A stretch of DNA of 58,433 nt from Chloroflexota bacterium. GTDB lineage: Bacteria; Chloroflexota; Anaerolineae; CG2-30-64-16. Numbering within the stretch: position 1 is the first letter of the stretch; each line of letters begins with the position of its first letter. Below the pieces are notes generated by a model. It was not told the origin of the DNA, ran no database searches, and was given only the letters and a program-made list of their open reading frames with translations. The stretch lies in assembly GCA_037445695.1 (NCBI GenBank), contig JBBIKA010000003.1:1-58433 (forward strand), read 5' to 3'. Positions 27,512 through 49,395 of the stretch are shown one piece after another. The translations under genes and the position numbers were made by a program.

Positions 27512-27595
27512 GGGGCCATCCCCGAATGAGACACGAATACACGAATGGCCCGTTGCGTGATTCGTGCATTCGTGGTCGGATTCGGGGATGGCCCT
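27512..27595. repeat. Family-D nested hairpin (outer GGCCATCCCCGAAT/ATTCGGGGATGGCC; inner CACGAATACACGAAT/ATTCGTGCATTCGTG)
   Basis: Outer stem is a perfect 14 bp (27514-27527/27580-27593). The inner arms match the 15-bp hairpin at 57861-57903. The element lies between divergent gene starts. Confidence 0.85.
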
Positions 27596-27664
27596 CTAGC
27601 CCGCCACCCAAAGTCATATTTAGAATTGCTGGTTCTTTCGCTCCTTTCGCGTTTTTATATTACA

Positions 27665-31146: not shown

Positions 31147-31178
31147 ATAGCAAAATCCGCAAAGCGGCAAAGCGACCG

Positions 31179-33251: not shown

Positions 33252-33301
33252 TGGCCCTTTTGACGGATGGCGCGGCCTCTGGTAGACTAACCCGAAAGTT
33301 T

Positions 33302-33334
33302 ACGTGCCAGGCACTTCCGAAGTGCCTGGCACGT
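33302..33334 (+). terminator. Family-E hairpin ACGTGCCAGGCACTT-CCG-AAGTGCCTGGCACGT (15-bp perfect stem) after the GT39 gene
   Basis: It lies 50 nt downstream of stop 33251. No clear U-tract follows. The arms are related to 6695-6715 and 36535-36567. Confidence 0.4.
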
Positions 33335-33371
33335 GACAACTGAAAGCATTATTTTGTTACGGAGGCTTCTC

Positions 33372-34688: not shown

Positions 34689-34710
34689 TGGAGAGCAGGA
34701 GGGCCATCGA

Positions 34711-35742
34711 GTGAGTGGCGAGCCGACGCTGGCGGTGATCGTGGTCAGCTATAACGTGCGGGAGCTGTTGGCCGCGTGTCTGCGCGCGACGCTGGCGAGC
34801 CTGGCGCGCGCTGCGTTCGTGTTGCCCGGCGCGGGCCGGCCGGCGACCGCGGCCGTGATCGTCGTGGACAACGCCTCGAGCGACGGCAGCGCGGAGATGG
34901 TCGCGGCCGGGTTCCCGCAGGTGCAGCTCATCGCCAGCCCGCAGAACCTGGGCTTCGCCGCCGGCAACAACCTGGCGCTGCGGATGTTGGGGCTCGACGA
35001 TCGCGCAACGCGCCCCTCCATCCCGAATCCCCAATCCCTCATCTTTAATCCCTCCTTCGTCCTCCTCCTCAACCCCGACGCCGAGCCGCTCGACGACGCC
35101 ATCGGACAGATGGTGGGCTTTCTGGCCGCGCATCCCGAGGTGGGCGGGGTCGGCGCACAGCTTCGTTATCCCGACGGCCGTTTTCAGGACGGCGCCTTCC
35201 GCTTCCCCGATCTGTGGCAGCTCTGGTTCGATTTCTTTCCGCCCCGGCCGCGACGCCTGCTTGCCTCGCGGCTCAACGGCCGCTATCCGCGCGCCTGGTA
35301 CGACGCCGGCCGGCCGTTCCCCATAGACTTCGCGCTCGGCGCGGCGCTCATGGTGCGGCGGGAAGCCATCGCGGGGGTCGGGCTGCTCGACGAGGGGTAC
35401 TTCATGTACGCGGAAGAGGTGGACTGGTGCTGGCGCATTCGGCGCGCGGGATGGCCCTTCTACTGCGTACCGACCGCCCGGGTGATCCACCACGGCGGCG
35501 CGAGCGCGCGCCAGTTTCGGGCGCAATCGTTCCTGAACCTGTGGCGCAGCCGCAAGCGCCTGTACGACCGCTTCTATGCGCCCGGCCAACGACGCCTGGC
35601 CGGTCTCATCGTGCGGTTGGGGATGTGGGTCGAGGCGCGTCGGGCGGCCGCGGCCGCGGCCCGCGGCGAGATCGCGGCCGACGAGCTCGCCGCTCGCCTG
35701 GCCGCCTGCCGCGAGGTGCGGGCTCTTTTTGCACACCTGTAA
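34711..35742 (+). CDS. GT2-family glycosyltransferase (rhamnosyltransferase-like)
   Basis: [14 protein letters not shown]...[10 protein letters not shown]...NLGFAAGNN...LLLNPDAEP.... GTG at 34711 follows GAGCAGGAGGG. Confidence 0.85.
35020..35054 (+). repeat. Degenerate heptanucleotide tract inside the GT2 CDS (ATCCCGA ATCCCCA ATCCCTC ATCTTTA ATCCCTC)
   Basis: Five 7-nt units were counted directly. They encode the atypical insert ...[13 protein letters not shown]... between the NLGFAAGNN and LLNPDAEP motifs. Confidence 0.7.
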
Positions 35743-35782
35743 GGCGGGATTGATCTCGCCATGCTACGAGCCGGAGAAAGAG

Positions 35783-36529
35783 ATGTCTGTTCAACTTGCC
35801 GCCGCGATCTTGACCCGCAACGAGGCCCGGCACATTGCCGCGTGTCTGGCCACGCTGGGGTTTGCCGATCAGGTGGTGCTTTCCGATTCGTTCAGCGACG
35901 ATGGAACAGTAGAGATTGCGCGGGCGGCCGGCGCGACGATCTTCCAGCGACCGTTCGACAACTTCGCCGGCCAACGCAACGCTACGCTGGCGGCCGTTGA
36001 CGCGGAGTGGGTCTTCTTCGTGGATGCCGATGAGCGGATCACGCCGGAGCTGGCCGCCGAGGTGCGTCGGGTGATCGTCGAACGGCCCGAAGTGGGCTGG
36101 TGGGTGCCGCGCCATAACTTCATCGCCGGCCACCAGGTGCGCCACGGTGGCTTCTATCCCGACTATCAGCTTCGCCTGGTGCGCCGCGACCGTGCCCGTT
36201 ATGACCCCAACCGCCCCGTGCACGAGGTGGTCCTGCTGGACGGCCCGGCGGGTTATCTGCAAAACCCGATGATCCACTACAATTACGCCACCTGGGCGCA
36301 GTTCCACGCCAAGCAGCGCCGCTACGCGCGCATGGAAAGCCGCATCCTGCGCGAACGCGGGGTCCGGCCGTGGCCGCACAAATTCGTGCGCCAGCCGCTG
36401 CGCGAGTTCTGGCGCCGCTATGTGACGCTGGAAGGATACAAAGACGGCTGGATGGGACTGAAGCTGGCCGCGCTGCTGGGCTTTTACTACGGCTTCCTGC
36501 CGCACTGGTATCTCCTGCGCGGCGCGTAA
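35783..36529 (+). CDS. GT2-family glycosyltransferase (WaaE/KdtX-like)
   Basis: AAILTRNEARHIAACL...VVLSDSFSDDGTVEIA...FAGQRNATL...WVFFVDADERITPEL.... Confidence 0.85.
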   Translation: MSVQLAAAILTRNEARHIAACLATLGFADQVVLSDSFSDDGTVEIARAAGATIFQRPFDNFAGQRNATLAAVDAEWVFFVDADERITPELAAEVRRVIVERPEVGWWVPRHNFIAGHQVRHGGFYPDYQLRLVRRDRARYDPNRPVHEVVLLDGPAGYLQNPMIHYNYATWAQFHAKQRRYARMESRILRERGVRPWPHKFVRQPLREFWRRYVTLEGYKDGWMGLKLAALLGFYYGFLPHWYLLRGA

Positions 36530-36575: not shown

Positions 36576-37052
36576 CTAACGTTTCACCGTCACCCCGATC
36601 CGCTTGAGGATGCGAGGCAACCCTGCGGCAATGAGGCGATCCAGCGCCTCGGCCGTCGCCGCGTAGCCCTCCTCCGGGCCGCCGTAAGGATCGGGGATCT
36701 CCTCGTTGCGGCCGACCATCTCGCTCAGCAGGAAGACCTTGCGCAGGTGTTTCGGCTCCAGGTAAAACAGGGAGCGGCGATGCTGTTCCTCCATGACCAG
36801 GACGATGCTCGCCTTTTCCAGCAACTCGGCCGTCATCGCTTGCGACCGATGATCGGCCAGGGAGAGGCCCCGTTGGCTCAGGGCGCGGGCGGCGCCGTCG
36901 CTGGCCTGGTCGCCATCACGAGCCCACATCCCCGCCGACTGCACCTCAACCTGGTCGGCCAGCCCCAACTCGGCAATGCGGCGGCGCATCAGGGCGGCCG
37001 CCATCGGCGAGCGGCAGATGTTGGCGGTGCACACAAAGAGGATGAGTTTCAT
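36576..37052 (-). CDS. Low-molecular-weight protein tyrosine/arginine phosphatase
   Basis: MKLILFVCTANICRSPMA (CX5R(S) P-loop) ...DPYG. Confidence 0.9.
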   Translation of the reverse strand: MKLILFVCTANICRSPMAAALMRRRIAELGLADQVEVQSAGMWARDGDQASDGAARALSQRGLSLADHRSQAMTAELLEKASIVLVMEEQHRRSLFYLEPKHLRKVFLLSEMVGRNEEIPDPYGGPEEGYAATAEALDRLIAAGLPRILKRIGVTVKR

Positions 37053-37081
37053 GCCGCGCTGCACGCCTTCCGATCTCGACT

Positions 37082-37648
37082 TCAGGCCAGCTCGGGCTGG
37101 ATCAGGCCGTAGTCGCCGGCGCTCCGCTTGTATACCACGTTGATCTGATTCTGGTTCACGTTGAAAAAGACAAAGAAGTTGTGGCCGAGCAGCTCCATTT
37201 GTTCGACGGCCTCTTCTTCGTCCATCGGCACCATCTGAAAACGCTTGACGCGGGTGATCCGCGGCAACGGCTCCTCAGCTTCAGCTTCTTCGCCGGCGCC
37301 TTCTTCCGGTGCAGCCGCAGCGACCTCGGCCGTCTCCCCGACCGCGCGCTTGGCCCAGCGTTTGCCCTTATAACGATCCACCTGGCGTTGCATCTTCTCG
37401 AAGACGGCATCAATCGAGGCAAACATGTCGGCCGAGGCCTCCTCGGCGCGCAGAATGGCGTGCTTGGTGCGCAAGGTCACCTGGGCGATCTGGCGATCTT
37501 TGGCCGCGCGCGTGTTCTCGACGGCGAGCTCCACGCGAGCGTCAATGACATTGGGCAGGTACCGATCCAACCGGCCGATCTTCTTCTCGACATAGGAGCG
37601 CAGAGAATCTGTGACCTCGAGGTTCCTTCCGGAGATGGCGAGTTGCAT
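37082..37648 (-). CDS. hpf: Ribosome hibernation promoting factor, long form
   Basis: MQLAISGRNLEVTDSLRSYVEKKIGRLDRYL... plus the C-terminal dimerisation domain ...RFQMVPMDEEEAVEQMELLGHNFFVFFN.... AAAGGAG RBS is present. Confidence 0.95.
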   Translation of the reverse strand: MQLAISGRNLEVTDSLRSYVEKKIGRLDRYLPNVIDARVELAVENTRAAKDRQIAQVTLRTKHAILRAEEASADMFASIDAVFEKMQRQVDRYKGKRWAKRAVGETAEVAAAAPEEGAGEEAEAEEPLPRITRVKRFQMVPMDEEEAVEQMELLGHNFFVFFNVNQNQINVVYKRSAGDYGLIQPELA

Positions 37649-37797
37649 GGGGTACACTCCTTTCCATATGCCAGAATAGGGCGTCGGAAGCCTCACGCCT
37701 TGGGGGTGGGTCAGGCCAGGCCATGCGAGCGCCCGTGCGAGTGATGATATTGTAGTGCGTCTTGCGGGAATTGTCAACCGCCTCGCGGCCCCGAGAT

Positions 37798-37860
37798 GTT
37801 TGGATTGCGGGGACGTGTCCCCGCTTTGGCTTGCAAAGCGGCGTCGAGCCGCCGCAAACC
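37798..37860. repeat. Family-A palindromic repeat copy (two hairpins)
   Basis: GTTTGGATTGCGGGGACGTGTCCCCGCTTTGGCTTGCAAAGCGGCGTCGAGCCGCCGCAAACC, in the hpf/osmC divergent spacer. It matches the reverse complement of 1-62. Confidence 0.75.
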
Positions 37861-37962
37861 ACAAGCCGCGCCGAATGTCAGATCAATCACCGACCGCCGT
37901 CCGCCTTCATGCTATAGTGGCACCGATCTCATCCTACACCATCGGATCACGACAAGGAGGAT

Positions 37963-38382
37963 ATGATGGCCGTACGATCGTCGTTCGCAGAATGGAAAGG
38001 TACGTTGAAAGAAGGCGCCGGCACCATGCGCCTGGGGAGCGGCGCCTGCGAGGGGCCGTTCACCTATGCCTCGCGCTTTGAGTCGGGAGAAGGAACCAAT
38101 CCGGAGGAACTGATCGGCGCTGCGCTCGCCGGCTGCTTCTCGATGTTCCTGTCGGCCCTGCTCAGCAATCGCGGCTATGTGCCGACCATCCGCACGACCG
38201 CTACGGTACACCTGGAGGCCGGCCCCACCATCGCGCTGATCGAGCTGGCAACCGAAGCTCAGGTGCCGGGCATTGACGAGGCGACCTTCCTGCAACTGGC
38301 CGCCGAGGCCAAGACGAAGTGCCCGGTCTCAAAGGCGTTGGCCGGGCCGGAGATCCGTTTGCAGGCGAAACTGGTGCAATAG
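37963..38382 (+). CDS. osmC: OsmC-family peroxiredoxin
   Basis: ...GTNPEELIGAALAGCFSM...AKTKCPVSKAL... (the two conserved Cys). AAGGAGG RBS is present. Confidence 0.9.
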   Translation: MMAVRSSFAEWKGTLKEGAGTMRLGSGACEGPFTYASRFESGEGTNPEELIGAALAGCFSMFLSALLSNRGYVPTIRTTATVHLEAGPTIALIELATEAQVPGIDEATFLQLAAEAKTKCPVSKALAGPEIRLQAKLVQ

Positions 38383-38516
38383 CGCGGCAGATTCTCAAAA
38401 CAGACGATCCGTGGTAAACTATGCGTCGGGCATGGCGGCGCGCAGTTCGCCCATTGCCGTTGACCGCGCCGCCGTTCGCTGTCGTTCTCTTGCATCGTGG
38501 TCGCCGGAGGAACGAC

Positions 38517-39329
38517 ATGAAACGCCAACAGCTACGGATCGTCGCAGCTATGGGGCTCGCGAGCCTGGTGGCCCTGGCCATCCTGTGGCTCGCGGCCATT
38601 GCCCCGCTCAGAACGCGACCGCAGCCAACCCCGACGGTTGCCCCGACAGAGGAGCGCACCCCTTCCCCCGTGTCCATCAGCAGCCCGACGGCCGAAGATC
38701 CCTATCGGCCGTTGCGCGAGGCCATGGTCGAGGAGCAGATCGCCCAGCGCGGGGTGACGGACGCGGCCGTGCTGGACGTCATGCGCCGGGTGCCCCGCCA
38801 TCGCTTCGTGCTGCCGCAATACCTCGACGTGGCCTACGGCGATCATCCCCTGCCCATCGGCCTGGGCCAGACCATCTCCCAGCCCTACATCGTCGCGCTG
38901 ATGACCGAGGCGCTGCGCGTTAAGCCGGGCGCACGCGTGCTGGAGATCGGCACGGGCAGCGGCTATCAGGCCGCGGTGTTGGCCGAGCTGGGCGCGGAAG
39001 TATACACGGTGGAGATCATCGGGGAGCTGGCCGAGCGGGCCGCGGCGCGCCTGGCCGAGCTGGGCTATGGCCGGGTGCAGGTGTTGACCGCCGACGGCTA
39101 TTTCGGCTGGCCCGAACATGCGCCCTACGACGCCATCATCGTGACCGCCGCGCCCGATCACCTGCCTCAGCCATTGGTCGGCCAGCTCAAGGAGGGCGGC
39201 CGGCTGGTCATCCCCATCGGCCCGACGGGCAGCTATCAGACGCTGTGGCTCTTTGAGAAGCGCGGGGGCGAGCTGCAGGCCACCAACCTGGGCGATGTGG
39301 TCTTTGTGCCGTTGACGGGCCGACACTGA
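38517..39329 (+). CDS. pcm: Protein-L-isoaspartate O-methyltransferase with an N-terminal signal-anchor and a P/T-rich linker
   Basis: ...VPRHRFV...[25 protein letters not shown]...[16 protein letters not shown].... The N-terminus is [38 protein letters not shown] is present. Confidence 0.9.
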
Positions 39330-39364: not shown

Positions 39365-41779
39365 TTACGAGGCCAGGGCCGCGAGCGCGTAGGCTGCGGC
39401 GCCGAGCAGCAGGACGACCGTGAACCCCCAGCTCAGGGCCGCGATGGCCGCCAGCACGGCCGCCACCACCGACGCGCAGCCGTTGATCGCCCACGCCCAG
39501 GCGATCGCCCGCGGGCCGGCCCCCTCGATGCGCGCCAGGCCGAGCGGAAACGGCATCCCCATCAGCACGGCGACCGGCGCCAGGGCCCCGATCGCGATCA
39601 ACAGCCGCAGCGCCAGGGGCCAGCCGAGGCTGATCGCCAGCAGCCGCGGGCCGGCCAGCGCGCTGAGCGCGATCAGCAATACCAGCGCGGAAAAGGCCCA
39701 TTTCGGCCGGACGGCCATCCTCTCGACGATCCGCGTGCCGATGCTCGCCAGAAGCAACAGCGGAACAACCACGACGCTGAACGCATAGGTGGCATGGCCG
39801 AAGAGCAAGATATAGCGCTGGATGAGAGGCACCTCCACAAACATGAAGGCCACACCCAGGCCGCCGAAGTAGAGCACCATGCGCCATAAGGGCACCGTCC
39901 GCGCCGCCCCCACTTCGCCCCTCGGCGCAAGGAGCAGCGGGACCACGATCAGCCCGGCGCCCAACAGCAACACCAGCCCCAACAGAGCGAAGAGCACCAG
40001 GTAGCCGCTGCCGCCGAACGGTTGCCACGTATGCCCCAACAGCGCGAGCACCTCGGTCGTCTGGCTCCAGCGGAAGAAATGGAAGAAGAAGGGCCGGTCG
40101 TCGGTGGCCGGCGCGATGGCAAAGGGGTAATCGGCGTAAAACGCGCGGCGATCGGCCGCGGCGAACATGGCCCGCAGCGCCTCGTAATCGGCCGGCCGGG
40201 GCAGGCGATTGAAGCGGTTCGTCTCGTCCGCGCGAATATCGGTCGCCCATACCAGATCGTAGCGTCGGTTGGCCAGGAAGTCCCGCGCGACGGCCAGCTC
40301 GGTCGCGCGCCACCCGCCGGGCGCCACGATCACCGTGATGGTCTGGATGCCCCGGTAGGCGAGCAGAACACGGGCCGGGTCGCCTGCCCCGCGGCGCTCC
40401 AGCGCCTCCGCCAGGCCGGCAATCAGGCGGAGGCTCTCGCTGGGCGGCGTCTGGAGCCAGCGCGTGATCACCAACAGGCCATCGGGGGCCAAACGCGCCA
40501 GAGCGGCCTCGAACGCCTCGACCGTCAGTCCGTAGGTTTCGGCCAGGCTATACGCGCCGCCGGTCACGGGCCGATAAGGATCGGTGAGCGGCAGGAACAC
40601 CACCTCGTAAGTCGCCCGATCGGCCGCCAGGAAGGCGCGGACGGGCGCCAGCACCGTTCGCACGCGCGGATCGGCGTAGGGGTCGGCCGGGCCGGCGGCG
40701 ATGGCCACGGCCTGGCGCTCCAACGGATTGCCGGTGACCGCGGTGACCTGCGACGCGCCGGCCGCCAGCGCCTGGAGGATGCCCAGCCCGCCGCCGGGCT
40801 CGAGGATCAGGGCGCGGGCCTGGGGCCGCAATGCGAAGGCCAATGTCTCGGGCAGGCAAGCGCCGAGCGCGAACTCTTCGGGCCGCGCCAGGGTAATGGG
40901 GAGCAGCGCATCGGCATCGCGCGCCAGGCCCAGTTGCGGCGGGGGCAAATCAGAGCAGGCATAGCTCAGGCCGGGCAACGCGCGCGTGCCCGCGCCCGCG
41001 ACGACATCTATGCGCGAGAGCGCATCCCAGCGGCCGAAGAGCGTCTGTGCGCCGCGCACGCGCCAGGCGTGCGCCAACCCCTTGTAGGGCGAGATCGTCA
41101 TGCCCAGGCCCCAACGGCCCGAGGCGCTGAGGTTGAGGCCGGCGAGCACGGCGAAGCCCGCGCTCATCAGCACCGCCAGCGCGGCTGCGGCCGACCGCAG
41201 CGCACGCGGCCGCGCCGGCGCCAGCCATAAAACGGGCAAGAATCCGATCAACGCGGCGATCAACACCGCGCCCGGCACGCCGGCCAGCTCGCCCGCGGCG
41301 AGCGCCATCAGCGCACCGGCCGCCGAGCCGAGCAGATTGGCCGCGTACACGCGCGGCCGCGTCGCGTCGGCGCTCTCCGCGTCGCCGGCCGCCAGCCCGG
41401 CCGCGATCCCCAGGCCACCACACAGGAACGGCAGGGTCAACGCCAGGTAATAGGCCGCAAACAGGCCGATCTGGCGACGATCCCAGGCGATGCTGTACGC
41501 ATCGAAAGGCAAAAGGTTGACGATGGTGTAGGCGATGGCCGTGGCGGCCGCGAAGCCGACGCTGCAGCCCAGCAGCACGCGTTCGGCCGACGCGCGACGC
41601 AGCCCCGGCGCAACGCTCAGGAGCGTGCCGCTGGCGCCGAAGCCGAGCAGCGCCAGGCTGATCGCCAGGAACGCGAAGTGATAGAATTGCGCGACCGCCA
41701 ACAGCCGGGTCAACGTGCCTTCGAGGAGCAGCGTAGCCGCGGCCAACATGGCGACGCCCCACGTGCCACGTCGCGACAT
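39365..41779 (-). CDS. Polytopic membrane protein with a central spermidine-synthase-like (SAM-MTase fold) domain
   Basis: About 8 N-terminal TM segments, a soluble core with LILEPGGGLGILQALAAGASQVTAV (class I MTase motif I-like), then about 6 C-terminal TM segments. The start was chosen at MSRRGTWGV. Confidence 0.7.
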   Translation of the reverse strand: MSRRGTWGVAMLAAATLLLEGTLTRLLAVAQFYHFAFLAISLALLGFGASGTLLSVAPGLRRASAERVLLGCSVGFAAATAIAYTIVNLLPFDAYSIAWDRRQIGLFAAYYLALTLPFLCGGLGIAAGLAAGDAESADATRPRVYAANLLGSAAGALMALAAGELAGVPGAVLIAALIGFLPVLWLAPARPRALRSAAAALAVLMSAGFAVLAGLNLSASGRWGLGMTISPYKGLAHAWRVRGAQTLFGRWDALSRIDVVAGAGTRALPGLSYACSDLPPPQLGLARDADALLPITLARPEEFALGACLPETLAFALRPQARALILEPGGGLGILQALAAGASQVTAVTGNPLERQAVAIAAGPADPYADPRVRTVLAPVRAFLAADRATYEVVFLPLTDPYRPVTGGAYSLAETYGLTVEAFEAALARLAPDGLLVITRWLQTPPSESLRLIAGLAEALERRGAGDPARVLLAYRGIQTITVIVAPGGWRATELAVARDFLANRRYDLVWATDIRADETNRFNRLPRPADYEALRAMFAAADRRAFYADYPFAIAPATDDRPFFFHFFRWSQTTEVLALLGHTWQPFGGSGYLVLFALLGLVLLLGAGLIVVPLLLAPRGEVGAARTVPLWRMVLYFGGLGVAFMFVEVPLIQRYILLFGHATYAFSVVVVPLLLLASIGTRIVERMAVRPKWAFSALVLLIALSALAGPRLLAISLGWPLALRLLIAIGALAPVAVLMGMPFPLGLARIEGAGPRAIAWAWAINGCASVVAAVLAAIAALSWGFTVVLLLGAAAYALAALAS

Positions 41780-41972
41780 GAGCCATGCCCCTATCGTGAA
41801 CTGTCTTCCTGTGGCACGGTCGAAGGCCGGCCACAAACAGAAACCGGCCATGGAGAAAACGGGTTCGCCTATAGTATACCCATAAGGCAAGCACGAAGTC
41901 AATGCGCCCATGCACAGCCGCACCATTTAAGCTTTGACCTTTCCCAGGCAGCGTGATAAAATGGAATTCACT

Positions 41973-42734
41973 ATGTCTGCAAACGAACCGCTCAACGCGA
42001 AAGTTATCGTCGTCATCCCCACCTACAACGAAGCCGACAACCTGCCGGCGTTGATCGCCGAGCTGCGAGCGCTCGAGCTGTCCAATCTCTCGGTGCTGAT
42101 CGTGGACGACAACTCGCCCGACGGCACCGGTCAGGTGGCCGAAACATTGGCTCAGCGCCTGCCGGGCTTCGTTCAGGTGCGTCACCGGCCGGGCAAGGAA
42201 GGGCTTGGCCGGGCCTACCTGGAGGGCTTCGACATCGCCCTGCGCGCCGGAGCCGATTACATCATCCAGATGGATGCCGACTTCTCGCACCCGCCCGCAG
42301 TCATCCCTCAGATGTTGGCCCTGATGCCCGAATACGACGTGGTGGTCGGCTCGCGCTATGTCGAGGGGGGCGCGCTCGACGAGCGCTGGGGCTGGTGGCG
42401 ACGCTTCTTGAGCTGGTGGGCCAACGAGGTCTGGTCGCGGCTGTTCCTCGGCCTGCGCGTGCGCGATATCACCGCCGGCTTCAAGTGCTGGCGCCGACAG
42501 ACGCTGCTCGGCATCGGCCTGGGGCGGATCGGCTCGAACGGCTACGCGTTCCAGGTCGAGATGGCTTATTTGACCGAGCGCCTGGGCTATCGCGTCAAGG
42601 AAATACCGATCTACTTCGAGGATCGGCGCATCGGCAAATCGAAGATGAGCATGCGGGTGAAGTTCCAGGGCGCATGGGATGTCATTCGGATTCGCTGGCG
42701 CTACCGCGGCAAGATCGCCCGGGCCCAGGGCTAG
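41973..42734 (+). CDS. ppm1: Polyprenol-monophosphate mannose (or related sugar) synthase, GT2 (Ppm1/DPM1-like)
   Basis: [18 protein letters not shown]...[13 protein letters not shown]...[15 protein letters not shown]...[12 protein letters not shown]...[10 protein letters not shown]...DITAGFKCW.... Confidence 0.9.
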
Positions 42735-42744
42735 AGGATCGGAC

Positions 42745-45700
42745 GTGAAAGCGTCGCACAAATACGATCTGGCCATCGGGCTGGGGTTGCTGTTGCTGCC
42801 GCTGCTCTGGTTTTGGCCGCAGGTGTTCGGCGGCCGCACGCTCCTGCCGGCCGACAACCTGTATCAGTGGCAACCCTGGCAGAGCTACGCCGGACAGTTG
42901 GGCGTCGGTGCTCCCTATAACCCGCTGATCAGCGACCTGGTGCTGGAGAACCTGCCGTGGAAGACGTTCATCGTCGAACAGTTGCGGGCAGGCCGACCAG
43001 GCGACCTCCTGTGGAACCCGCGCGTGTTTGCCGGTGTGCCGTTTCTGGCGGCCGGCCAGCATTCGGCGCTCTATCCGTTCAGCCTGATCTTCTACATCCT
43101 CCCCCTGTGGCGCGCTTACGGTATCTTCTCCGCGCTGCAGCTCGGCCTGGCCGCCCTGGGGATGTTCATCTTTGCACGGGTGTTGGGCCAGCGCCGGGCC
43201 GGCGCGGCCATCGCGGCCATCGCCTACGCGTTCTCCGGCTTCTACATCGTCAGCGTCAATTTCACCATGATGATCGCGGCCGCGGCCTGGCTGCCGTACA
43301 TCCTGGCCATGATCGAGATCATCATCGCCAAGCAGGAGCAAAAGGGGGCCGTGGCCTATTCGCCCGTGCCCTACGTGGCCGCGGGCGCGCTCTTCCTGGG
43401 CGTCCAGGTGCTGGCCGGCCACGTGGAGATCACCTACTACGTGCTCCTGGTCAGCGCGCTGTTCGCCGCTTGGCGCCTGACCGCCGCGTGGCGACATCTG
43501 GGCACCTGGCGGCCGTTGCCCCGCCTCATCCTCTGGCTGGGCGTCATGGGCGGCCTGGGGCTGGCTCTGGGGGCGGTGCAACTGGTGCCGCTCTACGAAC
43601 TGGTGCGCCAGAGCTTCCGGGAGGGCGCAGCTTCGCTGGCGCAGGTGCGCGGGTGGGCATGGCCAAGCCGCCAGATCATCACCTTCCTCTTGCCCGATTT
43701 CTTCGGCAATCCGACCCATCATGCCTATTTCGACATCTGGCGCCGTACCTGGACGCCGGTGACGCAAAACGCGCTCGGCCAGCCGTTGCGCTCGATTGAT
43801 TGGGGAGTGAAGAATTACGTCGAGGGCGCCAACTATCTGGGCCTCCTGACGCTGGCGCTGGCCGGGGTGGCGTTGGCGGCGGCCGTTGCGGCGCGGCGCC
43901 AACGTCGCGTCCTCGGCCCTCGCATCTCCACCTTTACCGTCGCCGGCTTCTTCCTCCTGGCGCTGCTGGCGCTCCTCTTCGCGTTCGGAACGCCGCTGTA
44001 TGCCATTCCGTTCTACCTCCTGCCGGGCTTCAATCAGCTTCACTCCGCGTTTCGCTGGGTCTATCCCTATACGCTGAGCATGGCCGCGCTGGCCGGCTTC
44101 GGGATCAGCGCGCTGCTGGAGGCCCGCGAGGCCACGACCGGGCCGGCCGATTGCTTCACCGCGCAGGTCCGGCGCGCGGTCATGCGCACGGCCCGTCGGC
44201 TGGGGCTCGTCGGCCTGATCGCGGGCGCGGGCGCCCTGGCCGCCGTCGTGCTCAGCGTGTTCGTGCCGGCGCCCTTCGTGGCGCTCGGCGGCCGCATTCT
44301 GGCCGCATCCGACCTGGCCCGCTCGAACGGCTTCGCGGACGCGGCGATGGCCTGGAGCTACGAGGCCGGCGTGTTGGCGAAGTTCGGTGCCATGGCCGTC
44401 CTCACGGGGCTCGTGCTCTGGTGGGCCGGCCGCCAGCCGACGACTAAGCCGCTCCCGGCCGGGGGTGCCGCTCCCGCATCCGGCCGGCCGGCGCTCTGGC
44501 CGGCCGCCGCCTGCGCGGTGCTCGTGGCCGATCTGTGGCTTTTCGGCCACGCCTTCAACCCCGCGACCGACCCCCGGCTGCTGGAGTTCAAGCCGCCGGT
44601 GATCGCCTGGCTCCAGGCGCAACGTTCGACCGAACAACCCTGGCGGCTGACCAGCTTCGACGGCCCGGACGAAAAGACGCTCAACGCCAACTCGGCCATG
44701 ACCTACGGCCTGGAAGACGTGCGGGGCTACGATTCGATCATCCCCCGGCAGTACGTCGAGTACATGAAGCGGATCCATCCGCAGGGCGAGCTGCTCTACA
44801 ATCGGATCGCCGCGCTCTATACCCGGCTCGGCGACCGGGCCAACTACGACGTGCTCGACCATCCCCTGCTCCATCTGCTCGGCGTGCGCTACGTCGTCAC
44901 GACGCACACGATCCCCAATCCGGGCTACCGGCTGGCCTACGACGGAGAGGTGAAGGTCTTCGAGAACGAGCGGGCCTTCCCCCGCGCGTTCATTGCGGCG
45001 GAGGCCATCGCGGCGGCCGACCAGACGGCCGCGCTCGACGCGCTGTTGCGGGTGGATCCGGCGCGGGTGGTGGTGATCGAGGGGCTGGCGGCCGAGGCCT
45101 TGCCCGCGCCGGCGTCGCCGCAGTTGCGCCAGGCGCGCATCAGCCGCTATACCCCGCGCGAAGTCTTCGTGGACGTCAACCTGAGCGACCGCGGCTGGCT
45201 GGTGTTGACCGATAACTTCGCCGACGGCTGGAAGGCCTACCTGCGACCGTTCGGCGTCGCGGGCGAGGGGATCACGGCAAGCGGCGAGGCGGTGGAACAG
45301 CAACTGCCCATCTACCGCGCGGACGGCACGTTCCGGGCCGTATACATTCCGCAGGCCGGCCAGTGGACGGTGCGCTTCGTCTATTCCCCGCGCTCGGCGA
45401 TCCTGGGCCTTTACGGCAGCTTCCTGGCCGGCATCACGTTGATCTTGTTGCTCGGCTGGTGGGCCTGGGGCCGGCTTTACCGCGGGGACCGCAGCGAGGT
45501 GGGACGGGTGGCCAAGAACAGCGCGGTGCAGATGGCCACTGCGCTGATGGCGCGGGGGATTGATTTTGCGTTCGCCATGCTCCGGCTGCGCATCTTGAGC
45601 CCGGCCGGCGAAGGCGCTTACGCGTTCGCCATCACCTTCTATACCACCTTCGAGATCGTCACCCGTTTCGGGCTGGGGACCTTGCTGACGCGCGATGTGG

Positions 45701-47031
45701 CCAAGGATTGCGGCCAGGCCCGGCGCTATCTGTTCAATGTGATCGAGCTGCGCACGCTGCTCTGGCTGGCGAGCCTGCCGGTCATGGCGCTGGTGGTGCT
45801 GGCGTATCAGCGCGGGGGCCAGCTTGCACCGGGAACGGCCGAGACCATCGCCCTGTTCGTGGCCGCGCTCCTCTTCGCCAACATCGCGGACGCCATCAGC
45901 GCGGTCTTCTTCGCCTACGAGCAGATGGAACATCCGGCCGGCATTGCCACCGCCATCGCGGTCGCCAAGGTGGCGCTGGGCGCGCTGGTGCTCTTGCCGC
46001 CCTTCGAGTTCGGCTTCGTCGGCCTGGCCGGCGTGTCGCTGATCATGAACGTCGCCCAGGTGATCTGGCTCTACCTGGTGTTGCGGCGGACGGTGCTGCC
46101 GCGCGCGGTGCCATCGCCGGCCGGCGGGCTGTTGGCGCGCGCCCGCGAGCGGTTGACGCAGAAGGTCACAGCCTGGGATTGGACGTTGCAGCGTTACATG
46201 CTGGTCGAGTCCGGGCCGCTGATGATCAATCATCTGCTGGCGAGCGTGTTCTGGCGCATCAATCTGTACATCCTGCAATGGTTCGCCGGCGCGACCGCGG
46301 TGGGCATCTTCTCGGCCGCGGTCAAATATCTGGACGGCCTGAACGTCATCCCCAGCTATTTCACCCTGGCGATCTTTCCGCTGATGAGTCGCTATGCCCA
46401 GGGACAGAGCGATGCGCTGGCGCGTGCCTACCGGCTGGCCGCCCAACTGCTCTTCATCCTGGCGCTGCCGATCGCGGTCGCGTTCACCTTCCTGGCCACG
46501 CCGCTCATCCGCATCCTGGGCGGCGCGGCCTATCTGCCCGATTCGGCCATCGCGTTGCAGATCACGATCTGGTCCATCCCGATCGGCTGGGTGAATTCGG
46601 TGACGCAATACGTGCTGATCTCGGTCAACCAGCAGCGCTTTCTCACGCGGGCGTTCATCATCGGCGTGCTCTTCACCGGCCTCGCCAACCTGCTGCTCGT
46701 GCCGCGCTTCGGCTATCTCGCCTCGGCCGCGCTGCTCACGCCCGCGGAACTGGCGCTCTTTTTCCCGTTTGCGTGGGCCGTGCGCCGCCATGTGACGGCC
46801 ATGCCGTGGCTGCGCCTGGGGGGCGGGCCGCTGCTGGCGACCGCGGCCAACGCGGCCGTGGTCTGGAGCCTGGAATCGGCCGGCGTGCCGATCTTGTTGG
46901 CGCTGGCAGCCGGCCTGCTGGCGTATGGGGTCTTGCTGGGCGTGCTGGGCGTGTTCCGCGGGGGCGATTTCGCCGTGTTGACGGCGCGGCTCCCCCGGCC
47001 GCTGAGGTTCGCCGCCAAGCTGCGGCCATAA
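42745..47031 (+). CDS. Fusion protein: N-terminal YfhO-family GT-C glycosyltransferase (about 42745-45480) plus C-terminal Wzx/MOP-type oligosaccharide flippase (about 45500-47031)
   Basis: The N-part LLPADNLYQWQPW...NPLISDLVLENLPW...LWNPRVFAGVPFLAAGQHSALYP is a YfhO signature. The C-part VAKNSAVQMATALMARGIDFAFAMLRLRILSPAGEGAYAFA... with about 12 TM segments is typical of polysaccharide flippases. It is a single uninterrupted 1428-codon frame. GTG at 42745 lies 10 nt after the ppm1 stop. Confidence 0.8.
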   Translation: MKASHKYDLAIGLGLLLLPLLWFWPQVFGGRTLLPADNLYQWQPWQSYAGQLGVGAPYNPLISDLVLENLPWKTFIVEQLRAGRPGDLLWNPRVFAGVPFLAAGQHSALYPFSLIFYILPLWRAYGIFSALQLGLAALGMFIFARVLGQRRAGAAIAAIAYAFSGFYIVSVNFTMMIAAAAWLPYILAMIEIIIAKQEQKGAVAYSPVPYVAAGALFLGVQVLAGHVEITYYVLLVSALFAAWRLTAAWRHLGTWRPLPRLILWLGVMGGLGLALGAVQLVPLYELVRQSFREGAASLAQVRGWAWPSRQIITFLLPDFFGNPTHHAYFDIWRRTWTPVTQNALGQPLRSIDWGVKNYVEGANYLGLLTLALAGVALAAAVAARRQRRVLGPRISTFTVAGFFLLALLALLFAFGTPLYAIPFYLLPGFNQLHSAFRWVYPYTLSMAALAGFGISALLEAREATTGPADCFTAQVRRAVMRTARRLGLVGLIAGAGALAAVVLSVFVPAPFVALGGRILAASDLARSNGFADAAMAWSYEAGVLAKFGAMAVLTGLVLWWAGRQPTTKPLPAGGAAPASGRPALWPAAACAVLVADLWLFGHAFNPATDPRLLEFKPPVIAWLQAQRSTEQPWRLTSFDGPDEKTLNANSAMTYGLEDVRGYDSIIPRQYVEYMKRIHPQGELLYNRIAALYTRLGDRANYDVLDHPLLHLLGVRYVVTTHTIPNPGYRLAYDGEVKVFENERAFPRAFIAAEAIAAADQTAALDALLRVDPARVVVIEGLAAEALPAPASPQLRQARISRYTPREVFVDVNLSDRGWLVLTDNFADGWKAYLRPFGVAGEGITASGEAVEQQLPIYRADGTFRAVYIPQAGQWTVRFVYSPRSAILGLYGSFLAGITLILLLGWWAWGRLYRGDRSEVGRVAKNSAVQMATALMARGIDFAFAMLRLRILSPAGEGAYAFAITFYTTFEIVTRFGLGTLLTRDVAKDCGQARRYLFNVIELRTLLWLASLPVMALVVLAYQRGGQLAPGTAETIALFVAALLFANIADAISAVFFAYEQMEHPAGIATAIAVAKVALGALVLLPPFEFGFVGLAGVSLIMNVAQVIWLYLVLRRTVLPRAVPSPAGGLLARARERLTQKVTAWDWTLQRYMLVESGPLMINHLLASVFWRINLYILQWFAGATAVGIFSAAVKYLDGLNVIPSYFTLAIFPLMSRYAQGQSDALARAYRLAAQLLFILALPIAVAFTFLATPLIRILGGAAYLPDSAIALQITIWSIPIGWVNSVTQYVLISVNQQRFLTRAFIIGVLFTGLANLLLVPRFGYLASAALLTPAELALFFPFAWAVRRHVTAMPWLRLGGGPLLATAANAAVVWSLESAGVPILLALAAGLLAYGVLLGVLGVFRGGDFAVLTARLPRPLRFAAKLRP

Positions 47032-47175
47032 CCGCGACGGCCGCAACGACGCACGGACAGTGAACTTGCCGTCCGACGTTAAGGCCATGCCCGACGTTCC
47101 CGGCATCTCTGCGGTGAGCCGGCCGGTTGCACGAGCAGCCCACCCGCCAAAGTGCAAACAGAGGAGGAGGTTAAC

Positions 47176-49395
47176 ATGCGCATCGGTATCATCACCAGCG
47201 GCGGTGATGCGCCGGGCATGAATGCCGCGATCCGGGCGGTCACGCGCTGCGCGCTCGACATCGGCATGGAGGTGATCGGCATCCACGAGGGCTGGCAGGG
47301 GGTGATCGAAGGGGGCGCCCGGTTCGAGCCGTTCAACTGGCGCAGCGCCGGCGGCATCCTCCAGTGGGGCGGCACGATCCTCGGCACCGCGCGCTCCGAA
47401 GCGTTCCGCACGGTCGCCGGCCGCCGCCAGGCGGCCCGCAACCTGGTACTGGCCGGCATTGACGGCATGGTGGTGGTAGGCGGCGACGGCTCGCTGACGG
47501 GCGCGCTGCTCCTCCACCAGGAGTGGCCGGAGCACCTGAAGGCGCTGGCGGCCGAAGGCGCGATTCCGGCTGAAAAGGCACAAGACCCGGCCCCGTTTCG
47601 CATCGTCGGCTTGCCCGGTTCCATAGACAACGACCAGTACGGCACCGACATGAGCATCGGCGCGGACACCGCGCTCAACACCATCGTCGAGGCCGTGGAC
47701 AAGCTCAGTTCCACGGCCGATTCGCACCAGCGCACCTTTGTGGTCGAGGTCATGGGCCGGCGTTGCGGCTACCTGGCCCTGATGAGCGCCCTGGCCACCG
47801 GCGCCGACTGGGTGCTGATTCCAGAGGAAGAGCTGGATCCGCGCTGGCACTATCGCATGGTAGATGCGCTCAAGCGCGGCCGCGCGGCCGGCCGACGCCA
47901 CGATCTGATCATCTTTGCCGAGGGCGCGCGGCACAGCGACGGCCTGCCGATCCGCGCCGAGACGATCACCGAGATCCTAAAGACGCGCATGGGGGTCGAA
48001 GGCCGCGTGACCGTGCTGGGCCATGTGCAGCGGGGCGGCTCGCCTACCGCGTTCGAGCGCGTGCTGGCGTCGCGGCTGGGCGAGGCGGCGGTAGAGTATC
48101 TGGCCGGCCCCGACCCTACGCCGGTGATGATCGGCCTGGTCGCCAATCAGCCGAAGGCGACGCCGCTGACCGAGGTGGTGGCCAAGAGCCAGGAGGTCAA
48201 CGCGCAGATGGACCTGGGCCAGTTCGAGGAGGCCCTGAAACTGCGCGGGCCCAGCTTCTTGGACACCCTTGACCTGGTCAAGACCTTGAGCCGGGCCGAG
48301 CCGAAGGAGGCGCTCCTGGATCGCGGCCGGGTGTGCCTGCTGACGGGCGGGCCCGACGCGCCGGGGATGAACGCCATCCTGCGCACGGCCCTGCGCATCG
48401 CCCGCAACGCCGGCCAGGATGTGATCGGCGCGCGCTACGGCTTCGGAGGCCTGGCCAGGGGCGACATGGTGCATCTGGGCTGGATGGACGTGCAGAACTG
48501 GATGGGCCTGGGCGGATCGGAGCTGGGCGCGGTGCGCCACGAGCTGACGGCCGACGAGATCCCGGCCATCGCGCGCACGGTCAGGGAATGGGACATCCGG
48601 GGGTTGATCGCCGTAGGCGGGCTGGAGACCTACGGCACAGTGGGCCGGCTGCTGGAAGCCCGCAACCGCCATCCGGAGTTGCGCATCCCCATTATCTGCG
48701 TGCCGGCCACCATCGGCAACAACCTGCCGGGCACCGAGTTCACCATCGGCGCGGACACCGCCCTGAACAACATCGTGGATGCGGTAGACAAGATCAAATA
48801 CACGGCGAGCGCGGCGCGGCGGGTGTACATCATCGAAGTGATGGGCCGACGCTGCGGCTATCTGGCGCTCACCGCGGGCATCGCCACCGGCGCGGAGATG
48901 GAACTGTTGCCCGAGGACGGCATCGCGCTCGAAGACCTGTTGCACGATACTGAGCTCTTGCGCCGCGGGTTCGACAGCGGCAAAAAGCTGGGCATCGTGA
49001 TCATCGCCGAAGACGCGTCGCCTTACTACGATACCGATTTCGTGCGGCGGGTCATTGATGCCGAGGCCCGCGGCGCGTTCGAGGTGCGCGTGTGCATCCT
49101 GGGCCATCTCCAGCGGGGGGGCGTGCCGACTGCGTTCGACCGCATCCAGGGCGCCCGGCTGGGCGCGCGGGCCGCGCAGCAGATCATGGACGACATCGCG
49201 GCCGGCCGGGATCAGGTCAATGTCATCGGCCTGGCACAACGCGGCATCCGCATCACCCCCTATGCGGAAGCCATGGCAAGCATGGACCTGGCCAACGGCC
49301 GGCCGCGGGAGCAGATGTTCCTCGGCTGGCGGCACCTGGCCGATAAACTGGCGCGGCCCGGCCCTGGGTGTATTGACAAACAACGGGATTTTTGA
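47176..49395 (+). CDS. pfk: Tandem-duplicated (eukaryote-type, ~740 aa) ATP-dependent 6-phosphofructokinase
   Basis: The N-half has SGGDAPGMN, GGDGS, PGSIDND and MGRRCGYLAL. The linker reads FEEALKLRGPSF. The C-half has degenerate motifs GGPDAPGMN, VGGLETY, PATIGNN and MGRRCGYLAL. GAGGAGGAGG RBS is present. Confidence 0.9.
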   Translation: MRIGIITSGGDAPGMNAAIRAVTRCALDIGMEVIGIHEGWQGVIEGGARFEPFNWRSAGGILQWGGTILGTARSEAFRTVAGRRQAARNLVLAGIDGMVVVGGDGSLTGALLLHQEWPEHLKALAAEGAIPAEKAQDPAPFRIVGLPGSIDNDQYGTDMSIGADTALNTIVEAVDKLSSTADSHQRTFVVEVMGRRCGYLALMSALATGADWVLIPEEELDPRWHYRMVDALKRGRAAGRRHDLIIFAEGARHSDGLPIRAETITEILKTRMGVEGRVTVLGHVQRGGSPTAFERVLASRLGEAAVEYLAGPDPTPVMIGLVANQPKATPLTEVVAKSQEVNAQMDLGQFEEALKLRGPSFLDTLDLVKTLSRAEPKEALLDRGRVCLLTGGPDAPGMNAILRTALRIARNAGQDVIGARYGFGGLARGDMVHLGWMDVQNWMGLGGSELGAVRHELTADEIPAIARTVREWDIRGLIAVGGLETYGTVGRLLEARNRHPELRIPIICVPATIGNNLPGTEFTIGADTALNNIVDAVDKIKYTASAARRVYIIEVMGRRCGYLALTAGIATGAEMELLPEDGIALEDLLHDTELLRRGFDSGKKLGIVIIAEDASPYYDTDFVRRVIDAEARGAFEVRVCILGHLQRGGVPTAFDRIQGARLGARAAQQIMDDIAAGRDQVNVIGLAQRGIRITPYAEAMASMDLANGRPREQMFLGWRHLADKLARPGPGCIDKQRDF

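Follow-up and report, generated by a model that had tools for sequence, protein, structure and literature searches.

Analysis of a 58,433-nucleotide stretch of Chloroflexota DNA (hereafter the window) revealed two adjacent genes, the first encoding a predicted polyprenyl-phosphate sugar synthase of the GT2 type and the second a single polypeptide composed of a YfhO-family GT-C glycosyltransferase and a flippase of the MOP superfamily. Judging from sequence and predicted fold, we favour with modest confidence the reading that the two cistrons make up a three-component extracytoplasmic glycosylation system. A further proposition, which we regard as evenly balanced, is that the MOP domain would be a flippase devoted to polyprenyl-monophosphate-hexose and, being covalently tied to the GT-C enzyme by which the flipped sugar is used, would form with it a single-polypeptide 'flip-and-transfer' machine across Chloroflexota.

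Arrangement of the gene pair

The GT2 gene (41973-42734, forward strand; 253 aa) ends in a TAG codon at 42732-42734 and is followed after 10 nt by the fusion gene (42745-47031, forward strand; 1428 codons plus stop), in which the glycosyltransferase and the flippase share one frame. Within the longer ORF 42679..47031(+), the 1428-codon version starts at the GTG at 42745, and the sequence shows a Shine-Dalgarno-like AGGA (42735..42738, forward strand) directly 3' of the GT2 stop and 6 nt 5' of this GTG. The spacing and the ORF length as read here agree with the original prediction of a Ppm1/DPM1-type GT2 gene 10 nt upstream of a 1428-codon ORF. Just 5' of the GT2 start lies a promoter-like site (TTGACC, a 17-nt spacer and a TG-extended TAAAAT; 41934..41962, forward strand) with 10/12 consensus matches; it is a consensus match only, from a scan that returned 2 sites versus 0.7 expected, and its position would imply that the leader of the GT2 transcript is very short or absent. 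The fusion ORF has a coding-type GC pattern (GC1/2/3 = 0.67/0.49/0.89), and a 1750-codon ORF antisense to it was rejected as a high-GC artefact without such a pattern. No paralogues of the GT2, GT-C or flippase parts were found elsewhere within the window.

The possibility that an assembly error or frameshift joined two separate genes bears directly on the fusion. No stop codon or frameshift interrupts the window sequence at ~45.5 kb, and both halves are encoded in a single frame at 82/82 loci from independent assemblies. An alignment of 111 full-length homologues further revealed that the junction, a conserved, basic linker of ~12 residues, is gap-free apart from an indel of 0-4 residues in the linker itself and belongs to the best-conserved stretches of the protein. 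Taking helices from the AlphaFold2 (AF2) model of the GT-C half together with the sequence, its basic loops and the positive-inside rule, we predict for this half an N-terminus on the inside, 14 TM helices, an extracytoplasmic soluble domain and a basic linker on the inside. The N-in topology of MOP transporters matches this linker-in position, so both halves can function in one chain. The continuous two-domain ORF originally predicted thus stands, and an artefact, against which the loci, the junction and the compatible topology of the join all speak, has a negligible probability.

The synthase, transferase and flippase modules

The GT2 protein consists of a catalytic domain (PF00535, 104.5 bits) with interface helices, and a search of its 253 aa for TM helices returned none. 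Its best PDB relative is the dolichol-phosphate mannose synthase (DPMS) of Pyrococcus furiosus (5MLZ, E=1.7e-32; aa 9-249 versus 23-254 of 374), in alignment with which the DAD motif (MDAD...HPP) is lined up, whereas matches to ArnC and GtrB are far weaker (1e-11 and 7e-6, respectively). Its relatives carry the automated names dolichol-phosphate mannosyltransferase or polyprenol monophosphomannose synthase. None of the NCBIfam equivalogs matched at cut-off; the best was AglJ with 60 bits versus 325, and a weak match to PgfS (E=1.8e-12) was likewise far under the equivalog cut-off. By these sequence comparisons the protein is a predicted DPM1-type polyprenyl-phosphate hexose synthase, in line with the Ppm1/DPM1-like assignment made earlier, with mannose as its putative sugar.

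The first half of the fusion protein (aa 1-911) comprises a GT-C membrane domain of 13 TM helices (aa 1-601; 42745..44547, forward strand), delimited by AF2, Foldseek and conservation, a beta-rich soluble domain of ~280 aa (aa 602-882; 44548..45390, forward strand), seen from hydropathy and from beta-strands in the AF2 model (pLDDT mostly >85), and a final TM helix (aa 883-911 in both AF2 models), which together with the short basic linker LYRGDRSEVGR (aa 912-922) spans 45391..45510 on the forward strand. This succession of TM block, beta-rich domain and last TM is the layout of YfhO-type proteins, which measure ~850-900 aa, and unfused relatives have 870-914 aa. Searching the PDB by sequence with either half of the fusion gave no match, and matches came from the fold search alone. 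The model of the GT-C half (14 TM in total; pLDDT 85.7, pTM 0.90) has as its top Foldseek matches exclusively GT-C enzymes, i.e. AftD (E=2.8e-5), ArnT (E=3.2e-5, target-normalised TM 0.52), EmbC, AglB, DPY19, AftA and Pmt; the PDB holds no YfhO structure for direct comparison. The model shows the features that define the GT-C fold, a multi-TM N-terminal domain whose first extracytoplasmic loop carries a conserved acidic residue. In this loop (aa ~23-120), N59, D64, W72, W90, Q105 and Y110 are invariant and D37 is near-invariant; beyond it, H226/E228, R292, H326, E360, Q431 and R437/W438 are likewise invariant and, by prediction, lie on the outer side, and the invariant residues of the soluble domain are R634, G661/Y662, R747 and W829. 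The soluble domain is predicted to be extracytoplasmic and is likely the acceptor-binding module typical of YfhO-type enzymes.

The YfhO profile (PF09586) matched 33/35 family members at E<=0.01 (best E=6.1e-21) and appears in the precomputed annotation of most homologues of the fusion protein, while the window copy itself reached 25.2 bits versus a cut-off of 28.5 (E=6.6e-6, over aa 107-295 only). The earlier assignment of the N-terminal ~910 aa to the YfhO family therefore holds for the family and for the GT-C fold, with the window copy falling short of the cut-off. The GT-C half of a few members also matched NCBIfam PgfM2/PgfM1 (best E=8e-13), far under the equivalog cut-offs. A polyprenyl-phosphate sugar as donor of this half would be supported indirectly by the adjoining gene for a putative polyprenyl-P-hexose synthase.

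The second half (aa 923-1428; 45511..47028, forward strand) is a Wzx/PST-type flippase domain of the MOP superfamily by Pfam, AF2 and Foldseek. Polysacc_synt (PF01943) scored 68.6 bits over aa 923-1217, well above its cut-off of 28.2, and PF13440 scored 28.2 bits (cut-off 23). The AF2 model (pLDDT 86.1) gave 50 PDB matches at E<=1e-3, all of them MOP transporters with MurJ and WzxE on top (MurJ 7wax, E=6e-8, TM 0.67/0.72; WzxE 9g9n, target-normalised TM 0.80). A complete MOP/Wzx-type flippase, as foreseen in the original prediction, is hence upheld by HMMs and fold, but not its 12 TM segments, since the helix count of the model and the MurJ-like length of ~510 aa suggest that the domain probably has 14 helices.

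These structural matches, the length and the probable 14 helices would also suit an orthologue of MurJ, i.e. the organism's lipid II flippase, with the GT-C half modifying emerging peptidoglycan precursors or the nascent wall. Pfam MurJ matched 6/35 members and NCBIfam murJ_mviN (TIGR01695) 2/35; the window protein, however, has no MurJ match at E<=0.01 in either NCBIfam or Pfam, and the Polysacc_synt and Wzx models score higher and match far more members. Moreover, unfused GT-C relatives nest within the clade of the fused ones, which implies that the fused flippase can disappear, an unlikely course for an essential MurJ. We largely reject this idea for lack of a MurJ profile match in the window protein and rate it very improbable. 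It is similarly improbable that the MOP half no longer exports a donor and serves as a scaffold or regulator, or carries polyprenyl phosphate, once freed by the transfer, back to the inner leaflet. Each GT-C reaction does require that the carrier be recycled, but the Und-P recyclers known so far are of the DedA and DUF368 families, and the MOP half retains more than 100 invariant positions, many of them polar or charged, which argue for a conserved transport function. They include K924, D940, R947, R949, R974, R983, E1059, E1062, K1075, N1162, R1171, D1197, R1216 and N1284-Y1289.

Conservation and gene neighbourhood in Chloroflexota

Relatives of the fusion occur in at least 558 species genomes, and the 80 genomes that were kept are all Chloroflexota; more than 120 full-length homologues share 53-91% identity. 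The fusion is abundant in the databases and spread over the phylum, its relatives being annotated as 'oligosaccharide flippase family protein' or simply as 'hypothetical'. The GT2 gene lies directly upstream of the fusion in 66/75 assessable loci and ~600 nt away in one more; it is absent within 6 kb in the other 8, where no different GT2 was found nearby and the flanks consist of housekeeping genes. Clustering of the flanking ORFs of the 82 loci revealed no conserved third gene, be it for a GacJ-like partner, a GtrA-family protein, an acceptor, a phosphoglycosyl transferase (PGT), Wzy or a further GT. A 35-locus cluster of ~103-aa ORFs proved spurious, being antisense and inside the fusion gene, and the next clusters were an OmpR-type regulator, CtaG and similar. 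The flanks consist of housekeeping genes that vary by lineage. GT2 and fusion form a conserved, self-contained module, these two genes alone being co-conserved. The GT39/DUF2079 cluster upstream in the window, which according to the original prediction could draw on the same lipid-linked sugar, shows no synteny with the pair among relatives. With its modules identified by HMM and fold and conserved together, the earlier claim that lipid-sugar synthase, flippase and GT-C transferase are encoded in two cistrons held up.

The neighbourhoods bear on a further explanation, in which the MOP half acts as a classical Wzx protein that flips a polyprenyl-PP-linked oligosaccharide or polymer precursor made elsewhere, the GT-C half decorates, polymerises or ligates this product outside, and the side-chain donor made by GT2 crosses by another route. 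To our knowledge, all MOP flippases characterised so far by biochemistry or structure (MurJ, WzxE, Wzx) act on substrates linked through pyrophosphate, and the best NCBIfam match of the flippase half is an exopolysaccharide Wzx (Wzx_EPS; 24/35 members, best 4.9e-21, far under the equivalog cut-off of 800). The eight loci without GT2 fit this explanation as well, and so do two unfused relatives: P0165 (locus L087) lies among GT4/GT2/PMT_2 genes together with a separate Polysacc_synt_3 MOP flippase, as expected of oligosaccharide flipping, and downstream of P0126 comes a gene for a Wzy_C/TPR protein. (The genes downstream of unfused P0145 were ruled out as a broken flippase on inspection, and P0135, a contig-truncated fragment, was left out of the unfused count.) The fusion loci, by contrast, lack the PGT, GTs and polymerase that surround the flippase of a Wzx/Wzy-type cluster, their sole conserved partner being the predicted polyprenyl-P-hexose synthase, and the classical role needs an additional flippase for the GT2 product. 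We hold it to be rather unlikely.

Given that no PGT, Wzy or other GT is conserved in the flanks, GT2 would be the sole local source of a lipid-linked sugar. The three-component reading is favoured by the 10-nt spacing with its Shine-Dalgarno motif, the DPMS-like GT2, the GT-C fold, the MOP fold and HMMs, the compatible predicted topology of the two halves, the fusion's integrity at all 82 loci with its conserved junction, and the adjacency of GT2 in most loci. The same reading is weakened by the loci without GT2, by the sub-cut-off YfhO score of the window copy, by the unfused relative with its own MOP flippase in a multi-GT cluster, and by the pyrophosphate-linked substrates of characterised MOP flippases. 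Under the three-component reading, the soluble or peripheral GT2 would, from homology, load polyprenyl phosphate on the cytoplasmic side with a hexose, most likely mannose, taken from a nucleotide sugar; the C-terminal MOP domain would then flip the polyprenyl-P-sugar to the outer leaflet, where the GT-C domain, judging from its family and fold and with conserved acidic and aromatic loops and the beta-rich domain facing outward, would pass the sugar to an extracytoplasmic acceptor. Candidate acceptors are wall polysaccharides, lipid-anchored polymers and surface proteins. The fusion would set flippase and transferase at 1:1 and in proximity, so that the donor would be used where it emerges; channelling is speculative. 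By analogy with GacI/GacJ, the fusion protein may also dock the TM-less GT2 at the membrane.

Relation to known systems and implications

The CsbB/GtcA/YfhO (GtlA/GtcA/GtlB) systems of teichoic-acid glycosylation in Bacillota follow the same logic, in that the polyprenyl-P-sugar from a GT2 is moved by a flippase and then transferred on the outside by a GT-C of the YfhO family, whose C-terminal domain faces outward, as predicted here; csbB and yfhO genes are often adjacent. Their flippase, however, is a separate 4-TM protein of the GtrA type, whereas here, as the original prediction had it, a ~510-aa MOP transporter is covalently fused to the GT-C, which holds at 82/82 loci, and CsbB/GtrB-type GT2 enzymes have C-terminal TM helices that the DPM1-type GT2 lacks. 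Chloroflexota are not known to make teichoic acids, so that the acceptor may well differ from that of the Bacillota systems.

The closest functional analogue is the GacI/GacJ/GacK/GacL system for the GlcNAc side chain of Streptococcus pyogenes, which combines a TM-less cytoplasmic GT-A, a Wzx-type (MOP) flippase and a GT-C transferase, and in which GacK is the proposed polyprenyl-monophosphate-sugar flippase (PMC8035078; bioRxiv 10.1101/180810). This precedent, in which a Wzx-type flippase works together with a cytoplasmic GT-A and a GT-C (PMC8035078), favours the three-component reading, weakened by the fact that the monophosphate role of GacK is only proposed. The Gac proteins are four separate polypeptides encoded in a large rhamnose-polysaccharide cluster, unlike the Chloroflexota pair, which joins flippase and GT-C, has no such cluster and comes without a GacJ-like partner gene; GacL, furthermore, is a small GT-C outside the YfhO family. 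A Wzx-type flippase in place of GtrA is hence already known as a separate protein, and its fusion to a GT-C is apparently undescribed: our search of the literature, with subscription journals covered only in part, returned no description of a YfhO-MOP or GT-C-MOP fusion.

The Ppm1 pathway of mycobacteria and corynebacteria resembles the pair in that a DPM1-like synthase feeds outside-acting GT-C mannosyltransferases (PimE, MptA/B, Pmt). Ppm1 of M. tuberculosis is itself fused to a membrane domain, which is Lnt-like rather than a flippase or GT-C, and we know of no MOP flippase assigned to the pathway. Known Wzx and MurJ proteins (WzxE 9g9n, MurJ 7wax/6nc6) resemble the C-terminal half in fold (TM-scores 0.6-0.8; Polysacc_synt above cut-off), yet stand alone and handle PP-linked oligosaccharides or lipid II in Wzy-dependent or peptidoglycan pathways, in contrast to the fused domain found here, paired with a predicted monophosphate-sugar synthase alone. 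PgfS/PgfM1/PgfE/PgfM2 of Streptococcus mutans, a protein O-glycosylation system without a fused flippase, illustrates that proteins can be among the targets of related GT2/GT-C pairs.

The step understood least in extracytoplasmic glycosylation is the translocation of polyprenyl-phosphate sugars. It is common to the decoration of teichoic acids and O-antigens, to mannosylation in mycobacteria and to the use of Dol-P-Man in eukaryotes, and GtrA/GtcA-type flippases have been assigned to it genetically, biochemical evidence being lacking (PMC7389260). A phylum-wide fusion of a MOP protein with a YfhO-type GT-C, which has a DPM1-like synthase as its nearly exclusive partner, provides 'Rosetta-stone' evidence and suggests that sugar donors linked through a monophosphate can be substrates of MOP flippases. 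If true, this would be the first instance of a gene fusion tying a MOP transporter to a monosaccharide substrate that is monophosphate-linked, and the protein would offer a stable, stoichiometric complex, ready at 1:1 for cryo-EM and reconstitution, for structural and biochemical proof of flipping, a step unresolved for PPM and Dol-P-Man in actinobacteria and eukaryotes. The current annotation hides two-thirds of the protein content, and the fusion points to a putative, as yet unstudied modification of the envelope in at least several hundred species of Chloroflexota, a phylum whose envelope is poorly characterised.

The fusion gene, its relatives and its unfused forms

The fusion gene lies within an ORF at 42679..47031 (+), in which a GTG at 42745 starts the 1428-codon version; as predicted originally, the GT2 gene ends 10 nt before this start (TAG, 42732-42734), and an AGGA in the gap is positioned 6 nt ahead of the GTG. 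GC content at codon positions 1/2/3 of this plus-strand ORF was 0.67/0.49/0.89, a coding-type pattern. Since the G+C of the window is ~67%, long ORFs occur by chance, and an antisense ORF of 1750 codons (42682-47934, -) spanning the whole fusion gene lacked the coding GC3 pattern and was rejected as a high-GC artefact. Coding signature, homologues and domains were found in the plus-strand ORF only and not in the antisense one; in this window the length of an ORF alone is no evidence. An entry identical to the fusion protein is present in NCBI, and independent assemblies provide more than 120 full-length homologues (about 1400-1500 aa) at 53-91% identity. Aligned with MAFFT, 111 full-length homologues showed a junction whose only gaps stem from a linker indel of 0-4 residues; column conservation is 77-84% in blocks 881-960, placing the junction on par with the catalytic cores. 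In each of 82 loci, taken from metagenomes and from a set with a single genome for each species, the flippase half was in-frame with the N-terminal half. These data bear out the prediction of a single continuous YfhO-flippase ORF and exclude a frameshift or assembly artefact as its source; the reading that the fusion is an artefact, to which we give next to no credence, is refuted by conservation across assemblies.

When one genome per species was scanned by pattern, relatives turned up in at least 558 genomes. The 80 genomes kept from the scan were all Chloroflexota (Anaerolineae/Anaerolineales, Caldilineales/Caldilineaceae and Ardenticatenia), and divergent fused representatives (34-40% identity) were likewise Chloroflexota, one of them a Dehalococcoidia MAG. 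The GT-C half, searched exhaustively, matched 1067 representative clusters with E<=1e-30 and 19,783 with E<=1e-3; among the best 150 matches, ~46 were fused, and about a dozen were unfused proteins that are complete (830-955 aa). Genuine unfused relatives are P0126, P0145, P0157 and P0165, while P0135 was discarded as an unfused form, its sequence being cut off by a contig end. A neighbour-joining tree built from the GT-C half, without support values, puts the unfused forms inside the fused clade at two places, which suggests that they lost the flippase half secondarily. The gene of P0165 (6962-9574 of its locus, L087; 39% identity) shares its cluster with three GT4, one GT2, a PMT_2 GT-C and a Polysacc_synt_3 flippase encoded by its own gene, showing that YfhO-like and MOP proteins are also associated as separate genes in a multi-GT context. 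P0126, a stand-alone protein of 889 aa (49% identity), has no GT2 upstream; encoded after it are a Wzy_C (O-antigen ligase/polymerase-like) and TPR protein of 720 aa and a 511-aa protein without Pfam match.

Fold and predicted topology of the two halves

The original prediction assigned the first ~910 residues to the YfhO family. On the window copy the YfhO Pfam model scored 25.2 bits, below its cut-off of 28.5, and covered aa 107-295 only, whereas it matched 33 of the 35 family members (best E=6e-21); the YfhO HMM thus supports the assignment at the level of the family only, and the predicted fold is that of a GT-C. An AF2 model of this half, aa 1-911 (51 sequences; pLDDT 85.7, pTM 0.90), had as its top PDB fold matches exclusively GT-C glycosyltransferases with polyprenyl-phosphate-linked donors, namely AftD, ArnT (target-normalised TM 0.52), EmbC/EmbA-B, AglB, DPY19, AftA and PMTs; no YfhO structure was found in the PDB. 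Model helices, hydropathy and the distribution of basic loops predict an N-in topology with 13 TMs within residues 1-601, a soluble domain rich in beta-strands (~280 residues, 602-882) placed outside, and TM14 (883-911), which would lead the chain back to the cytoplasm. In the first predicted outward loop N59, D64, W72, W90, Q105 and Y110 are invariant and D37 is near-invariant, and H226/E228, R292, H326, E360, Q431 and R437/W438 are invariant in other predicted outward loops; such clustering is a hallmark of GT-C enzymes.

The flippase half (aa 923-1428) scored 68.6 bits with Polysacc_synt (cut-off 28.2) and 28.2 bits with Polysacc_synt_3, and its AF2 model (pLDDT 86.1) had 50 PDB fold matches at E<=1e-3, all MOP transporters. 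MurJ 7wax led these matches (E=6e-8, TM 0.67/0.72), followed by WzxE (target-normalised TM 0.80). This half is ~90 residues longer than WzxE, with two additional C-terminal helices, and therefore probably has 14 TMs like MurJ; the complete Wzx/MOP-type flippase predicted originally thus stands, with a helix count that is probably 14 and not 12. MurJ being the best fold match, the half might be a MurJ orthologue, which we consider highly improbable: the NCBIfam models for Wzx_EPS and SpoVB matched 24 and 18 of the 35 family members and that for MurJ just 2, and the half is apparently dispensable. Very unlikely, too, is a role as scaffold or in carrier recycling, given that polar residues are densely conserved in the MOP half, pointing to transport. 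A basic linker of ~12 residues (LYRGDRSEVGR) connects TM14 with the opening helix of the flippase half; it is predicted on the cytoplasmic side, where MOP transporters begin, so that the two halves would be topologically compatible.

The GT2 gene and the neighbourhood of the pair

The 253-aa GT2 (41973..42734, +) matched Glycos_transf_2 with 104.5 bits. Its best solved relative was the P. furiosus dolichol-phosphate mannose synthase 5MLZ (E=1.7e-32), whose residues 23-254 of 374 matched GT2 aa 9-249 across the catalytic domain and interface helices, with MDAD...HPP aligned; the GT2 lacks the four TM helices found at the C-terminus of the archaeal enzyme, and ArnC and GtrB matched it far more weakly. 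No NCBIfam equivalog model matched at cut-off, and close relatives are automatically named dolichol-phosphate mannosyltransferase or polyprenol monophosphomannose synthase. In agreement with the original assignment, the GT2 is, judged by its sequence, a DPM1/Ppm1-type polyprenyl-phosphate hexose synthase, and mannose is our best guess for its sugar. A promoter-like TTGACC-17-TG-TAAAAT within 41934-41973 (+) ends just 10 nt ahead of the GT2 ATG at 41973, and an in-frame second ATG at 41961 falls inside its -10 element; the transcript may have little or no leader.

A DPM1-like GT2 was found directly upstream of the fusion in 66 of the 75 loci with sufficient upstream sequence, and ~600 nt upstream in one more; the other eight had none within 6 kb. 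When all flanking ORFs were clustered, no further co-conserved genes emerged; the next commonest neighbours were an OmpR-type regulator, CtaG, tRNA synthetase and similar. The OmpR-type response regulator (Response_reg + Trans_reg_C) recurs beside the pair at L001, L002, L015, L026 and ~15 loci, in several lineages, which could reflect a regulatory link or lineage synteny. The pair is flanked in the window by a divergently oriented 853-aa polytopic membrane protein (39365-41926, -) without Pfam match, carrying a weak spermidine-synthase-like match mid-protein (NF002956, E=0.007), and, directly downstream of the fusion, by a 747-aa phosphofructokinase (47152-49395, +) with two PFK-domain stretches in a tandem-duplicated architecture; L002 and ~7 other loci likewise have a PFK of similar kind, ~730 aa long, after the pair. 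A separate envelope-glycosylation cluster (27545-36529, +) encodes an LPG_synthase_TM protein, a DUF2079 membrane protein (215 bits), a PMT_2-type GT-C, a CHU_C-domain protein and two more GT2; its ORFs 28078-31146 and 29982-33251 overlap as listed, and their true starts need refinement. The DUF2079, PMT_2 and GT2 genes noted originally at 28-36.5 kb are thus present, but relatives show no synteny between the cluster and the pair, and a link between the pair and these GT39/DUF2079 genes is unsupported. Between cluster and pair (36576-39329) are encoded a low-molecular-weight phosphotyrosine phosphatase (-), an OsmC-like protein (+) and a protein-L-isoaspartate O-methyltransferase (+); phosphatases of this kind are often regulators of polysaccharide synthesis.

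A proposed route and its precedents

We propose that the GT2 would charge polyprenyl phosphate with a hexose inside, that the MOP domain would flip this lipid-sugar, and that the YfhO-type GT-C domain would pass the sugar to an external acceptor via its outward-facing catalytic loops and beta-rich domain; we infer this full model with moderate confidence. The strongest argument for the donor of the GT2, and against a pyrophosphate-linked oligosaccharide, as the substrate flipped by the MOP domain comes from context: among enzymes that form lipid-sugars, a monophosphate-hexose synthase alone is conserved with the fusion, and neither an initiating phosphoglycosyl transferase nor additional GTs or a polymerase accompany it. 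Alternatively, and more tentatively, the MOP half could act as a classical Wzx on a PP-linked glycan that the GT-C half decorates or ligates. This would fit the substrates known for MOP flippases, the multi-GT cluster in which the unfused P0165 has its own MOP flippase, and the Wzy_C/TPR protein adjoining P0126; the fused gene, however, is not surrounded by a conserved cluster of this kind. In the proposed charging, flipping and transfer by the pair, covalent fusion would impose proximity and stoichiometry, and it could supply the membrane anchor missing from the TM-less GT2, by analogy with GacI/GacJ. Some family members weakly matched PgfM1/PgfM2 and the GT2 weakly matched PgfS, making a protein acceptor as plausible as a polysaccharide.

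The pair follows the same logic as CsbB/GtcA/YfhO of Bacillota and is closest in logic to GacI/GacJ/GacK/GacL of S. pyogenes, in which a cytoplasmic GT-A, a Wzx-type flippase and a GT-C have been proposed to cooperate (PMC8035078). Given GacK, a MOP flippase in place of GtrA is not new in itself. The original interpretation was supported overall, with minor corrections concerning the YfhO HMM, the TM count, the GacK precedent and the upstream link. What is new is the covalent fusion of a MOP flippase to a YfhO-type GT-C, the reduction to a module of just two genes, free-standing and including a DPM1-type synthase, and the conservation of this pair across Chloroflexota. In line with the original statement, the literature searched, with much subscription literature outside it, contained no description of such a fusion and nowhere mentioned YfhO together with Chloroflexi. 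Database labels of the fusion proteins ('oligosaccharide flippase family protein', 'O-antigen/teichoic acid export membrane protein', 'hypothetical') overlook the GT-C two-thirds. Flipping of polyprenyl-monophosphate sugars lacks biochemical demonstration even for GtrA-type proteins (PMC7389260), and for this poorly understood step the fusion offers both gene-fusion evidence and a practical experimental handle.
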